Origin: Candidatus Saccharimonadota bacterium
GTDB lineage: Bacteria; Patescibacteriota; Saccharimonadia; Saccharimonadales; Saccharimonadaceae
Assembly (NCBI GenBank): GCA_017431725.1
Contig: JAFRKN010000003.1
Span: 25,912-89,911 of the forward strand
Reading direction: 5' to 3'
DNA: 64,000 bases
In this document: positions 4,779 through 37,460 of the stretch, one piece after another
Layout: every line of letters starts with the position of its first letter
Numbering within the stretch: position 1 is the stretch's first letter
Notes under the pieces: model-generated
The model's input: the letters and a program-made list of their open reading frames with translations, nothing else
The model's database searches: none
Told to the model about the DNA's origin: nothing
Program-made: the position numbers and the translations under genes

Positions 4779-4856
4779 TCTAAGTTCCTTTGGTTAAATT
4801 TAATACTTGGTTAGCTAATTGTTAAATAGCGTCACCAAATAAAATTATAAGAAATT

Positions 4857-4902
4857 TCCTCGGCGACATGATTAAGAGCAAAACTCCGTCGCTGTCTTTG
4901 GT
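4857..4902 (-). promoter_or_regulatory. L10 leader (autoregulatory RNA) candidate
   Basis: Minus strand CCAAAGACAGCGAC...TTAA...GTCGCCGAGG upstream of rplJ resembles the AGACAG...CGAGG L10-leader pattern. Confidence 0.75.
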
Positions 4903-4944
4903 AACTTTCTTAATTATAACACACAACTTAAATTTCGGCAATAT

Positions 4945-11558: not shown

Positions 11559-11700
11559 TGGCTGGGGATGAGGGATTCGATTCGAAGAACGAGTCCTGCT
11601 TTTTGTGCATGCTCGTTAGAGCATGGCTGGGGATGAGGGATTCGACCGGAGCGTCAGCGACGGACGAGTCCTGCTTTTTGATGTTTTTGTGAAACAAAAA
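11559..11700 (-). repeat. Two exact 22-nt copies of the tRNA-Gln 3' end separated by motif-bearing units
   Basis: TGGCTGGGGATGAGGGATTCGA occurs at 11559-11580, 11624-11645 and 11701-11722. Both intervening units contain ACGAGTCCTGCTTTTTG. Confidence 0.95.
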
Positions 11701-11775
11701 TGGCTGGGGATGAGGGATTCGAACCCCCGAATGTCGGGACCAGAACCCGATGCCTTACCACTTGGCGAATCCCCA
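11701..11775 (-). tRNA. tRNA-Gln(CTG)
   Basis: Cloverleaf TGGGGAT/ATCCCCA, anticodon arm TCGGG-TTCTGGT-CCCGA, GTTCGAATC T-loop, encoded CCA. Confidence 0.97.
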
Positions 11776-32400: not shown

Positions 32401-32727
32401 TATTGGCTGATCGAGCTTTCGGTCATAATCTTCAGAGTAATTTTTATATTGCGCTAAAATTTCCGAGCCAAACGCATGGTATGTTCCGATATTAACCTTT
32501 AAAGCATCATTACCAATAATCGACTTAAGCCGTTCGCGCATATTTTTGGCACCAGTTTCTGTAAAAGTTAAGCACAAAATATTTTCTGGGTTTGTATCCA
32601 AATTTTCTAAAATGTAAGCAACTTTATGGCTTAAAAGCTGCGTCTTACCAGTACCTGGCCCTGCCAAAACCAAAAGAGGCCCCCCGAGATATTCTACTGC
32701 CTCTTTCTGTTTTTGGTTCAGGCCCAT
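29485..32727 (-). CDS. UvrD/PcrA-family helicase with C-terminal PD-(D/E)xK nuclease
   Basis: AGPGTGKT, LDEFQD, VGDDDQAIY, ENYRS, YVALTRA; C-terminal GKIDH...YDFKT. Confidence 0.92.
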   Translation of the reverse strand: MGLNQKQKEAVEYLGGPLLVLAGPGTGKTQLLSHKVAYILENLDTNPENILCLTFTETGAKNMRERLKSIIGNDALKVNIGTYHAFGSEILAQYKNYSEDYDRKLDQPINEVIQYKIIKKLQDNLPATDILKGDSVKDIMGVISEAKAANLSAKDLFKIAEKNIEDSKVLSEAISPLLKNVVPYKFRESYDNAYMPIYETLKEYGNLKPILGTIERSIAGLARDLKEAILLASETEKIKPLSDWKDKYFEKDKANNYRLKDRVANKKLLSLAGIMSNYDQYLKENGLYDFNDMIEEAVKILKDDDGFRMTLQERYQFIMLDEFQDTNPSQFAIVKELTNYENPMVMAVGDDDQAIYEFQGALASNLTDFQKHYSANVIPLVENYRSTQEILDFSHEIIKQAPDRFADKELIAHNKNPKVSQVNRYEFISSDAEYGFVADEIVKLITNGVKQSEIAVISYKTKYFEPLLPFLKAHQKIRIAYEKKDNLFDDEKIHEILTIARFVDEIANEKKPSVQILEILSYPFFKLSTLEILNLVGRAKSEHRTALEVLSEAENPKIVEVIKFLADLAAKSFLEPLDTMLDYIIGTSELNGYRSPLLEYYVTENHDEYEIFTFYESLAALRGKITKHFCEKPLRLADLIEMLDDYLAAEMPLNISSPYRESEDAVSVLSAHKAKGLEFSYVFIISADHMAWGKGKGNNNLLSLPKNLIQIRHTGITDGEKLRVLYVALTRAKKALYITNSLRDFNDKSPERLEYFNEYVENDEVISPFLPTKKVNCLYDTATLEKRQQNLKNWLSVFTGYTPDLREIYKNRVEKWRMSATALSSFVDIVYAGPQAFFKSYVLQAPREPKTESLAFGDLVHEVFETVTKKNISDEEALKLFNSKLDKEDLSVEIKQAIREKGPNSLIASLKKFKDILRQGKAEVDFGAEKIVIDGVPVTGKIDHIIIDEKRKTIEIYDFKTAGYHKEKWESHASLYKYMLQLGFYKLLLNHSTQYKKYKVEKAHILFVTPDYDGEVHDKIYEFTEEEETKLKQLMRAVYQNVYSLNFIDDPDMFIAPNEKFGVKDIKKFIELLLAKNKTF

Positions 32728-33497
32728 TTATCACTTCTCTCAATCAAATTTAATAAAAGTGACACGTTTTCAGGTATAACAATCTCTCCACGCTTAATTT
32801 TTTTTAGAGCTGATATCCCTTCTACGGTTTTTTCTGGTTGATAATCAGGATTATCTTTTAATTTATCGCCAAATTCAAAATTACGCGACGGATAGGCGCA
32901 AGTAATTTTTAAATCTCCCTTACCACAAACTAAATCTACTGTTTCTGGCTTCGCCCCATTAGCTTTTAAAATTAATTTCATCTCATTTTCGACATCACTC
33001 AAAAATTTTCGGTGCTCTTTTGTCCCCGTTTTTAGCCCCAACAAACCAGCCAATATTGCGTAAACATTTTTTAAAGCTCCGCACATCAAAACACCTTTTT
33101 CATCATCTGTCGTATCAAAAGTCAAATAATCAGTCCCAAACATCTTGAGAATTCTTTCGTCAGTCGCGGTTAATTTGGTCTTTTTATGCGCTTTTATATC
33201 GACTGCAAAACCCGGCCCAGACAGAATCATATAATCTTTAAAATCTTTAAAAGTATCAACAGACAAAATACCTTTTGTCGCAATAATTAGAGGCTTCTTT
33301 TTTGGCAAATGTGGTAAAAGATATGGTACAGATTTTGAAGGCACCGCCAAAAGAATCATTTGCGCAGTCGCCAAAACTTCTTGCAAAGGTTCATTCATGA
33401 TTTTTGAGTCATAATAATCCACGTCATACCCATTATCGGTTAAAATACTTCCTAGTGCTGTCCCAAATGCCCCCGCTCCTAAAATCGCTATTTTCAT
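32718..33497 (-). CDS. gpsA: NAD(P)H-dependent glycerol-3-phosphate dehydrogenase
   Basis: GAGAFGTAL, ATKG, LSGP, GALKNVYAI, GDLKITC, SRNFEFG, TVEG. Confidence 0.88.
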   Translation of the reverse strand: MKIAILGAGAFGTALGSILTDNGYDVDYYDSKIMNEPLQEVLATAQMILLAVPSKSVPYLLPHLPKKKPLIIATKGILSVDTFKDFKDYMILSGPGFAVDIKAHKKTKLTATDERILKMFGTDYLTFDTTDDEKGVLMCGALKNVYAILAGLLGLKTGTKEHRKFLSDVENEMKLILKANGAKPETVDLVCGKGDLKITCAYPSRNFEFGDKLKDNPDYQPEKTVEGISALKKIKRGEIVIPENVSLLLNLIERSDKWA

Positions 33498-33532
33498 TTT
33501 TGTTATCCGATTAAATAAAAAAATAATATTGA

Positions 33533-33676
33533 AAGTAGGACTCGCTCGAAATAGTAGCGACAACCGATGCCCTGCTTTTTAATACACTTTCGCAAGAAAG
33601 TGGTGCTGGAAGTAGGACTCGATTCGAATGAAGTGAGAACCGATGTCCTGCTTTTTAATGCACTTTCGCAAGAAAG
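33533..33676 (-). repeat. Exact 22-nt and partial 12-nt copies of the tRNA-Tyr 3' end separated by near-duplicate motif units
   Basis: TGGTGCTGGAAGTAGGACTCGA at 33601-33622 equals 33677-33698; AAGTAGGACTCG at 33533-33544. Both units contain AACCGATG(T/C)CCTGCTTTTTAAT(G/A)CACTTTCGCAAGAAAG. Confidence 0.95.
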
Positions 33677-33761
33677 TGGTGCTGGAAGTAGGACTCGAAC
33701 CTACGAAGCCCGAAGGCGAGAGATTTACAGTCTCTTGTCATTGCCACTAGACGATTCCAGC
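33677..33761 (-). tRNA. tRNA-Tyr(GTA)
   Basis: GCTGGAA/TTCCAGC acceptor, AGAGA-CTGTAAA-TCTCT anticodon arm, long variable arm, encoded CCA. Confidence 0.97.
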
Positions 33762-33827
33762 TCACTCATAATTATATGGGATTTCCACAAAAAAATCAAC
33801 TTTATTAAGCATCTTCTGATTTTTAAA

Positions 33828-34631
33828 CTAAATCCGTTTTCGGCCGACATGTTGTTTTATAATACGAGGCAAGGGCTTTTTTTCGACGGATTTATTTATT
33901 TTTGTAGGAGTTTGCTTTTTTGGCTCCACATCAGTTTTTGATTTATTTTTTTTGGATACATTCAAAATTGACTTTCTAGCATTAGACAGAGTCTTTTTTC
34001 TTTTTAGTTCATTGTCTCGCACAATTTGTTCTTCGATTCGTGCTGCCGTTGCCGTCACAGCTTCCTCGTCTCCGCTTTCTTCATAAATCGATAAAATCAG
34101 CCTTAGTGTTGCAATTTTTGGATCAAGCTCATAGGCGTTTTCCAAAGCTTTGATTGCTTTCTTGGTGTGACCCAACTTTTCTTCTGCTTTAGAAAGCGCA
34201 ATATAGCGAGAAGGAACATCACCTTCTAGCTCAATTGCCTGTTCAAACGCCATTGCAGCTTTTTCATAAGCTCCAGTCTCTAAATATATCAAACCGGCGT
34301 TATGAATTGAAGCCGAATTACTGTCAAGAGATTGAGCAATTTCAAAACATTCCACCGCTTCGTCGTATTTTTTGCCTTTGGCATACAAAATACCCAATCT
34401 ATTATAAGCTGCGGCATTTTTTTCATCAAATTTTAAAATCGTCAGCAAGGCCTTTTCTGCCTTAAAAGGTTTTCTTTCTTTCATTGAAGTTTGTGCAATC
34501 TGCCAAAGTTTTTTCATTTGGGCAGTGTATTTAGGAGATTTAATTTCCCTCTCTTTTTCTTTTTTGGATTCTAACGGGAAAAAGAAAGAAAGATAAATGA
34601 CAAAAAACAAAATAGCTAAAACAGCAATCAT
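33828..34631 (-). CDS. Membrane-anchored TPR-repeat protein
   Basis: N-terminal TM; AAAYNRLGILY, HNAGLIYLETGAYEKA TPR patterns. Confidence 0.85.
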   Translation of the reverse strand: MIAVLAILFFVIYLSFFFPLESKKEKEREIKSPKYTAQMKKLWQIAQTSMKERKPFKAEKALLTILKFDEKNAAAYNRLGILYAKGKKYDEAVECFEIAQSLDSNSASIHNAGLIYLETGAYEKAAMAFEQAIELEGDVPSRYIALSKAEEKLGHTKKAIKALENAYELDPKIATLRLILSIYEESGDEEAVTATAARIEEQIVRDNELKRKKTLSNARKSILNVSKKNKSKTDVEPKKQTPTKINKSVEKKPLPRIIKQHVGRKRI

Positions 34632-37298: not shown

Positions 37299-37375
37299 GG
37301 GGCGTTAGCTCAGCTGATTAGAGCGCTACTATGGCATAGTAGAGGTCATGAGTTTGAATCTCATACGCTCCACCA
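37299..37375 (+). tRNA. tRNA-Ala(GGC)
   Basis: GGGGCGT/ACGCTCC acceptor with G3:U70, CTACT-ATGGCAT-AGTAG anticodon arm, encoded CCA. The D-loop has GA instead of GG and the T-loop has TTTGA instead of TTCGA, consistent with a compensatory A19-U56 pair. Confidence 0.93.
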
Positions 37376-37441
37376 AAAATGAAAAGCCAAGAATTTATTC
37401 TTGGGTTTTTATTTTTTAGGAGTGGCCTGAGATTACTTCGT

Positions 37442-37460
37442 AATCTCATACGCTCCACCA
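37442..37460 (+). repeat. 19-nt duplicate of the tRNA-Ala(GGC) 3' end
   Basis: AATCTCATACGCTCCACCA at 37357-37375 and 37442-37460. Confidence 0.92.

Follow-up and report, generated by a model that had tools for sequence, protein, structure and literature searches.

Behind the tRNA-Tyr gene of a Candidatus Saccharimonadota genome (assembly GCA_017431725.1) lies a tandem array of small structured units, each ending in a copy of the 3' end of the tRNA. The gene is located in a stretch of 64,000 nucleotides of contig JAFRKN010000003.1, which was analysed as a whole and is called the window below (coordinates without a genome or contig label refer to it). The window's source genome has 752 kb, is 98.5% complete and contains 49 tRNAs. 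The units belong to a hitherto undescribed family of small repeats, genus-wide in its spread, whose targets are the ends of tRNA genes; the literature searched contained no description of such units in Saccharibacteria or elsewhere. We tentatively favor the reading, with a probability of about 0.4, that the units are tiny insertion cassettes without coding content which target the 3' ends of tRNA genes, entering at the T-loop CGA by means of a folded DNA site.

Organization of the tRNA-Tyr array

The tRNA-Tyr(GTA) gene, with an encoded CCA and a TTCGAGT T-loop, occupies positions 33677-33761 of the reverse strand (ARAGORN; Rfam tRNA model 57.6 bits), and all parts of the array lie on the same strand. 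In tRNA sense, behind the gene come a 54-nt unit, 22 nt that copy its end exactly, a 56-nt unit and a degraded copy. Unit 1 starts with a small hairpin 1, CTTTC-TTGC-GAAAG, that abuts the CCA directly (33663-33676; sequence and fold), continues with the conserved single-stranded linker TGCATT-AAAAAG (33651-33662; three alignments) and ends in a long imperfect hairpin 2 (33612-33650; fold z = -3.3, with the covariation described below). The tRNA-end copy begins with CGAGTCCTA(C), to which the 5' arm of this hairpin, CAGGAC(A)TCG, is paired; between the arms lie an inner 3-bp helix and an apical loop. Copy 1 (33601-33622) comprises exactly 22 nt of the tRNA-Tyr 3' end, from T55 of the T-loop to the CCA. 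Unit 2 (33545-33600; sequence and fold, covariance model 57.7 bits) has the same hairpin 1, the linker TGTATT-AAAAAG, a hairpin 2 with the 5' arm CAGGGC(A)TCG, and an inner part that is unlike that of unit 1. In both units, hairpin 1 is followed by TG(C/T)ATT and then by AAAAAGCAGG(A/G)CATCGGTT.

A first-pass annotation of the window, made from the sequence alone, had described tRNA-Tyr and the tandem array of 3'-end copies, including the shared hairpin CTTTC-TTGC-GAAAG and the following motif at the start of both units. These statements on the sequence were all borne out, apart from the length of the distal copy. Taken by the annotation for a 12-nt remnant, this copy (33524-33544, just upstream of gpsA; sequence comparison) is a full copy of 21 nt with five transitions, all of which fall within the acceptor/CCA part; its first 12 nt are intact, and the copy is now U-rich. 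It is, as had been proposed, the oldest-looking copy of the array.

The tRNA-Gln(CTG) gene (11701-11775, reverse strand; ARAGORN and sequence) is the second locus of the window that carries the family. Behind it, at 11559-11700 on the same strand, lie two units, one of the long and one of the short form (54.7 and 48.5 bits), and the terminator hairpin comes after them. Both share the motif AAAAAGCAGGAC, and each ends in an exact 22-nt copy of the tRNA-Gln end. The earlier suggestion that the Tyr motif is the motif found at tRNA-Gln holds: the two loci carry one family, as supported by both the enrichment of a 12-mer and the covariance model. The 12-mer AAAAAGCAGGRC occurs four times in the window, confined to the four Tyr and Gln units, with 0.04 occurrences expected from shuffles and none of 100 shuffles reaching four, so that the motif stands out against the shuffled controls that the annotation had named as its test. 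A covariance model built from eight units gave the two Tyr units E-values of 1.7e-11 and 1.1e-9. In the Gln units of the window, a GGAC arm faces ATCC, which leaves a C.A mismatch; judging from this pairing, the units look as if they had not yet been refitted after a move from a GTCC-type tRNA.

Structure and covariation of the units

Units of the family measure 43-58 nt plus the copy and form a repeat of 55-80 nt that includes the last 21-22 bases of the tRNA. In tRNA sense, the CCA is followed by the small hairpin 1, the linker TGCAYY-AAAAAG and the long imperfect hairpin 2. The sequence of hairpin 1 varies, yet its fold forms in 56 of the 62 distinct segments. The 5' arm of hairpin 2 consists of 5-7 nt matching the cognate tRNA and of TCG, in 32 of 65 distinct units with a bulged A or G between the two. 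A G-G or T-T mismatch at a fixed position comes next, then a freely covarying 3-bp helix and, at the inner end, a TC-by-TC internal loop, a 2-bp apical stem and a loop that is most often TTC. The 3' arm ends in CGA and the 3' strand of the T-stem, which are the beginning of the tRNA-end copy. A short form of the unit lacks the apical part of hairpin 2.

In the long hairpin, the structure is kept while the sequence varies. Among 72 distinct units, 92.2% of the cells are paired versus 81.1% in shuffles, a value reached by none of 500 shuffles, and 112 double-sided changes were counted where 36 were expected. Compensatory change was found at 10 of the 13 pairs, and controls in which the partner was slid by 1-3 columns were at most 42% paired. 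The 5' arm is fitted to the T-loop and T-stem of each tRNA, with the combinations GGAC/GTCC, GGAT/ATCC, GGGC/GCCC, GAGAT/ATCTC, GGAAT/ATTCC and GAGAC/GTCTC.

Distribution in the genome and in the genus

A copy of the tRNA's own end within 170 nt downstream was found for 7 of the 49 tRNAs of the source genome, and the covariance search added an eighth carrier, Ser-CGA. The unit family stands behind five of these tRNAs (Gln-CTG, Tyr, Lys-TTT, Asn and Ser-CGA); the other three, Ala-GGC (located in the window), Arg-TCG and Gln-TTG, carry other kinds of units that also end in a tRNA-end copy. No distant copy of a tRNA end was found for any of the 49 tRNAs.

The covariance model was then applied to 151 species genomes of the genus Candidatus Nanosyncoccus, and the family was detected in 58 of them, in arrays of up to five units. 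The same search found no member in 149 other genomes of the order, spanning 119 other genera. The family is patchy in its occurrence and young. Across the genus, the carriers include at least 16 isoacceptors (Tyr, three Ser, Arg, two Gln, three Val, two Lys, Asn, Trp, Leu and Asp). Every carrier tRNA has a T-loop of the TTCGA type, which a manual count found in 26 of the 49 tRNAs of the source genome, and the tRNA-end copy always begins at C56 or T55 of the T-loop and runs to the CCA. At tRNA-Tyr, the number of units per species is 0, 1, 2 or 5, after which a terminator or tRNA-Thr follows.

The metagenome-assembled genomes (MAGs) of Nanosyncoccus came from the gut of sheep, goat, yak, cattle, buffalo and deer, and the sequencing runs that contain the DNA of the window are ruminant gut metagenomes. 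In public genomes, a pattern search found at least 119 loci; of the 80 that were screened, 15 were confirmed by the model, all of them in Saccharibacteria or Nanosyncoccus MAGs.

Turnover and decay of the arrays

Many arrays are runs of identical units, such as the four behind Arg-TCG in genome G044 or the four identical units and one variant behind Gln-TTG in genome G162, and other arrays in the genus mix unlike unit kinds. Internal tRNA-end copies are mostly identical to the tRNA. The last copies decay in the acceptor/CCA part, with 99 mismatches in 52 last copies. In the five-unit array of G162 (L060, C4:35700-36700), all five copies differ from the resident tRNA-Gln(TTG) at the same 2-3 acceptor positions; the copies are therefore not simply kept in step with the gene. 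The pattern looks as if the array or the 3' end of the gene had come from another lineage.

A contig of ~95% identity from another sheep sample spans the Tyr array. Its distal unit differs from that of the window at 3 positions, and its proximal unit shows at least 13 substitutions and 6 indels in ~55 nt. Turnover next to the tRNA is therefore plausible, and to this extent the earlier proposal of a polarised, tRNA-proximal addition of units finds support in this comparison between strains. The degraded distal copy itself is explained equally well by decay at the edge of a tandem array. On a further metagenome contig (L216), the decayed distal copy of the window stands behind a different unit body, so an exchange must have occurred to the left of copy position 12.

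In genome G002, an island of 6.4 kb (L079, C16, 89-6470) lies between tRNA-Tyr and a unit with an exact copy. One of its genes encodes a protein of 796 aa in which nine DUF4379 treble-clef zinc fingers and a weak match to REase_MTES_1575 were found; the product of a second is a HATPase_c_3 protein of 515 aa. From these domains the content of the island looks defence-related; no integrase was found in it. Contig L218 has a unit and copy first, then DNA resembling the start of the G002 island and ~420 nt of its inside (85.6% identity), with no further Tyr copy within the following 5 kb. At a separate locus (L119 / G301:C3:1743-1763), a perfect copy of tRNA-Asn type stands at a unit with a degenerate copy before it; no tRNA-Asn gene with the end of this unit was found, and the assembly has the copy alone.

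Strand asymmetry

We compared the two strands of the folded units. The helices of the sense strand contain 35 A.C mismatches versus 23 G.T pairs, and in 30 of 65 units a C.A also occupies one flanking position. The loop of hairpin 1 is of the GNA or GNNA type on the antisense strand in 46 of 56 cases and on the sense strand in 1 of 56. The most frequent apical stem-loop has the antisense sequence GCGAAGC, known as a very stable DNA mini-hairpin, and the TC-by-TC internal loop is a tandem G-A on that strand. Under RNA parameters, folding favours the antisense strand in 58 of 70 units, by a mean of 2.9 kcal/mol. These data point away from a structure that was selected solely as sense RNA, without being proof.

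A cassette model and its candidate enzymes

The insertion-cassette reading is favored because of the spread of the units within one genus, their patchiness, the fitted 5' arm and the start of the copy at the T-loop CGA, and further because of the TTCGA-only targets, the strand asymmetry and the cassette-like changes of order. The data show the anatomy, the kinship of units across loci and species, the covariation, the fit to each tRNA, the confinement to one genus, the turnover between strains and the asymmetric loops; what we infer is a recombination at the DNA level, its crossover position and the kind of enzyme involved. One period comprises the tRNA segment from C56 to the CCA, the small hairpin, the linker, and the 5' arm and interior of hairpin 2, with the next tRNA-end copy supplying the 3' arm. 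The base of the folded hairpin reproduces the duplex formed in the tRNA gene by the T-loop and the 3' half of the T-stem. A recombinase would pair the folded site, probably on the strand opposite to the tRNA sense, with the tRNA gene and carry out the exchange at or just 3' of the T-loop CGA. The tRNA would be left intact, its former 3' end would be displaced distally, and new units would take their place beside the gene. The arrays would then expand and contract through recombination between the 21-22-nt repeats, which would produce runs of identical units, while the most distal copy would decay.

The sole candidates seen for such an enzyme are Xer-like tyrosine recombinases, one of them accessory and probably itself mobile. 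The source genome encodes two (best scores to XerD or XerC), neither of which is near an array; integron-integrase models score them at 126 and 72 bits versus a cut-off of 265. Neither a serine recombinase nor a Y1 HUH transposase (PF01797) was found in this 98.5%-complete genome. The more divergent of the two recombinases is the accessory one and is present in 38 of the 151 genomes. Units are carried by 23 of these 38 genomes versus 35 of the 113 others (odds ratio 3.4, p = 0.002, with relatedness ignored). Its gene lies on a 2.7-kb segment ~3 kb before the start of the window (G000:C8:20089-22768; L228 8090-10769) that is 87.7% identical to its counterpart in genome G114, where the flanking genes are ~74% identical. 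In G114, the segment is located ~170 nt downstream of a tRNA-Glu that bears a minihelix unit (one of the other unit kinds, described below), with no tRNA copy at the far end. From these comparisons, the segment is probably a small mobile element.

Reverse transcriptases (RTs) were also considered. The source genome has two, of 396 and 376 aa (G000:C8:7363-7974 = L027 and G000:C7:1817-2203 = L028), neither of which is near an array, and both score below all curated subfamily cut-offs. RT genes occur in 96 of the 151 genomes of the genus, namely in 40 of the 58 unit-bearing genomes versus 56 of the 93 others (p = 0.30), and this candidate was dropped for want of association. The RT genes possibly belong to diversity-generating retroelements.

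Several results weigh against the cassette reading. None of the arrays has a recombinase linked to it, the accessory one was never observed beside a type-1 array in the genomes of the genus, and the unit-rich genomes G017, G125 and G123 are without it. Neither excised forms nor empty-site joints nor skipped forms were found in the assembled contigs of four runs. A pattern search for a free element with the site, made with one loop variant in the assembled contigs of IMG/VR, gave 5 matches, all due to chance and in coding DNA. The period of 76 nt is too short for a duplex circle, so that a single-stranded or other intermediate must be assumed. The TTCGA-only target rule is partly circular, because the covariance model itself contains the CGA. 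For the strand asymmetry, the evidence consists of loop motifs and nearest-neighbour energies, and with DNA parameters both strands fold equally well. Much of the turnover could also be accounted for by homologous recombination that is anchored on the conserved tRNA genes, together with gene conversion, and no site-specific enzyme would then be needed.

Alternative explanations

The main rival, a serious one that we hold to be somewhat less probable, is that the units are co-transcribed RNA modules of the tRNA 3' trailer, comparable to the RtT RNA of E. coli, that are cut at the internal CCA and at the A-rich linker by the tRNA-processing machinery. Their hairpins, released or in cis, would serve processing, termination or regulation, and the units would have spread from one tRNA locus to another via recombination in the conserved T-loop. 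The position of the units agrees with this: they always sit between the CCA and a terminator or the next tRNA gene, as in operons of tRNA-Tyr, unit and tRNA-Thr, and a scan of the Tyr locus found no terminator-like site that parts the tRNA from its units. Lying inside tRNA transcription units, they must be transcribed with the tRNA, and contigs from RNA libraries (poly-A, one study) span copy 1 and unit 2 and reach into the start of gpsA, although such contigs give neither ends nor strand and may stem from DNA carry-over. Covariation shows that the structure is conserved, the A-rich single strand linking the hairpins may act as an endonuclease site, which it resembles, and the decayed distal copy, U-rich behind a strong hairpin, resembles a terminator. 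There is also a precedent in E. coli, where four RtT units follow tyrT and tyrV, each ending in 19 nt of tRNA-Tyr. However, the sense strand shows no preference for G.U over A.C, and the loops and internal loops look optimised on the opposite strand. Patchiness among species and variability at every locus argue against a needed function, and an RNA role leaves unexplained how units arrive at new tRNAs with a fitted 5' arm. The cassette and the RNA readings are not mutually exclusive.

That the units are scars of integrase-carrying elements (prophages, islands or tycheposon-like elements) which entered the T-loop and lost their interiors, leaving the arms and the displaced end, seems unlikely to us. 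Such elements classically leave a partial tRNA copy that starts in the T-loop, and their tandem accretion, by which older elements are pushed distally, is documented; the 6.4-kb island of G002 and the longer unit kinds (65-262 nt) in the arrays would fit as well. Independent deletions, however, would not leave, at 16 tRNAs in dozens of species, one uniform unit of 43-58 nt in which helices, bulge and apical loop are alike. No integrase was found at any array or in the G002 island, the source genome has no distant tRNA-end copies, and no matching attP was found in the viral contigs searched with one loop variant. In an attL/attR-type comparison, a direct repeat of the 3' part of the tRNA that starts inside the gene was present, with the tRNA intact and normally scored, but the repeat-bounded element contained no integrase, and the units of 43-58 nt are without an open reading frame (ORF). 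A purely local event, in which a single slippage or unequal crossover duplicated the trailer of tRNA-Tyr, is very improbable. Units 1 and 2 do share an identical hairpin 1 and a nearly identical linker, and the frequency of identical-unit arrays in the genus indicates that tandem duplication occurs. As the sole explanation, which the first-pass annotation had raised against its own proposal as a slippage unrelated to the Gln locus, it is refuted by the presence of the same family, far beyond chance, at other tRNAs with their own 3'-end copies, by the arrays that combine dissimilar units, and by the 12-mer enrichment. We find it least probable of all that the units form a memory in the manner of clustered regularly interspaced short palindromic repeats (CRISPR), with each unit storing a foreign-derived segment added beside the tRNA. 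The polarised look of the array with its degraded distal copy and the strain difference in the proximal unit had made this analogy attractive, and it fails because there are no spacers: the variable part is a covarying 3-bp helix with a conserved loop, leaving no room for one, the stems of hairpin 1 being the other variable portion, and unique foreign spacers between identical repeats were not found in the arrays. Runs of identical units are common, no cas-like or acquisition genes were seen, and the RTs show no association.

Relation to known systems

In kind, the units are related to the tyrT/RtT repeats and to elements that target tRNA genes, such as tycheposons. The repeats of the E. coli tyrT-tyrV operon (RtT RNA, RF00391; rttR, tpr) are likewise tandem, co-transcribed units behind tRNA-Tyr, each ending in a 3'-end copy that starts in the T-loop; in E. 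coli K-12 we located the 19-nt copy at a spacing of 178 nt behind tyrV, with one more in the interval that separates tyrT from tyrV. The E. coli unit, however, has 178 nt and is confined to one operon, whereas the units described here have 43-58 nt plus copy, another fold, at least 16 carrier tRNAs and a fitted 5' arm. RF00391 gave no match at its gathering score (45 bits) in the window and none at E <= 10 on 33450-33800, and an Rfam search of the Tyr locus at a permissive threshold returned the tRNA itself as the sole match. On the longer units of the genus, RF00391 gave no match at E <= 1, with four matches of 133-137 bits in the E. coli control. The resemblance to the E. coli array is one of layout only.

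Partial copies of tRNAs are normally read as footprints of large integrated elements. Tycheposons and the accretion of cis-mobilizable and integrative and conjugative elements (CIME/ICE) share with the present arrays the 3' target in the tRNA, the partial copy at the far end and the proximal position of new arrivals. They measure kilobases and encode an integrase or derive from elements that do, whereas here the repeats have 55-80 nt, carry no genes and conserve a folded hairpin. In the tycheposons of Prochlorococcus, incoming elements integrate next to the tRNA and push older ones further in, so that partial tRNAs accumulate (10.1101/2020.12.28.424599).

Folded-site systems offer another comparison. 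Integron attC sites and the attP(+) site of the CTX phage share with hairpin 2 a structure-conserved imperfect hairpin with a bulged base, a fixed mismatch and one strand that is seemingly favoured; in these systems, too, folding recreates the target duplex, and cassette arrays lie beside a fixed entry site. In their form, the unit hairpins appear attC-like (imperfect, structure-conserved, with extrahelical bases and a strand bias), a resemblance of form that does not establish membership. Unlike in integrons, there is no IntI-type integrase, attI or R-box consensus here, the entry site would be a tRNA gene and the cassettes are almost all empty; next to the array, too, a search of this genome found no IntI-type integrase. 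We regard as unlikely a full integron-like platform, in which the tRNA 3' end would be the entry site, a folded bottom-strand hairpin mimicking the tRNA duplex would be the cassette site and a trans-acting Xer-like recombinase would handle mostly empty units of 55-80 nt, with the same site also able to bound cargo such as the G002 island. REP/BIME, BOX, Correia and other small interspersed repeats of bacteria are short non-coding hairpin repeats as well, located within transcription units upstream of terminators, patchy and variable in copy number. They differ in being scattered over intergenic DNA and in not duplicating tRNA ends, and no RAYT/Y1 transposase was found in this genome.

To our knowledge, E. 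coli tyrT/RtT is the only textbook case of small tRNA-end repeats and has stood as an unexplained curiosity. Here, an RtT-like layout takes the form of a well-defined structured family of 55-80 nt at no fewer than 16 tRNA genes of an ultra-small, host-dependent genus, with an arm re-fitted to each target. If the units are truly mobile DNA, few known site-specific insertion units would be smaller, and they would exemplify the way in which a folded site may be directed at tRNA genes; if they act as RNA, they would represent a new class of tRNA-trailer RNA. Either way, they provide a fast-evolving strain marker for Nanosyncoccus and a warning that fragments of tRNA ends are not always scars of prophages.

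Other unit kinds and neighbouring features

The tRNA-Ala(GGC) gene of the window (37299-37375, forward strand) is followed at 37376-37460 by a different kind of unit, consisting of a terminator hairpin and then a 'minihelix'. In the latter, GGAGTGG pairs with the 3' strand of the acceptor, a T-arm-like hairpin is present, and a 19-nt copy of the tRNA end occupies 37442-37460. The 5' strand of the minihelix has an A at position 3, which turns the alanine identity pair G3.U70 into A-U; the same replacement is found in the tRNA-Ala(CGC) unit of another species (L013). Minihelix-like units occur in the genus also behind Arg-TCG, Thr-TGT, Gln and Glu tRNAs.

Longer units of 164-262 nt were found behind Gln(TTG) or Tyr (G000:C3:32227-32410 = L025; L009; L035). 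They end in an 18-nt copy that starts right after TTCGA and share the motif GAGAACCGTAGGTTCG, which recalls GGATGAGAA...GGTTCGAC of the E. coli RtT unit.

Just upstream of tRNA-Tyr, at 33771-33799 on the reverse strand, a consensus scan found a promoter-like site (TTGATT, a 17-nt spacer and TATAAT; 10 of 12 matches, a pattern match only). Elsewhere in the window, the reverse strand carries a ribosomal protein L10 leader at 4831-4919 (RF00557, 53.6 bits). On its other side, the Tyr array is flanked by a housekeeping gene for a gpsA-like glycerol-3-phosphate dehydrogenase (32718-33497, reverse strand; Pfam NAD_Gly3P_dh_N and NAD_Gly3P_dh_C). Two mechanically called ORFs, 33567-33941 (forward strand, 124 aa) and 32718-33563 (reverse strand, 281 aa), cross the tRNA and the unit array; both calls are either spurious or extended too far, and the true start of gpsA is the ATG at 33495-33497.
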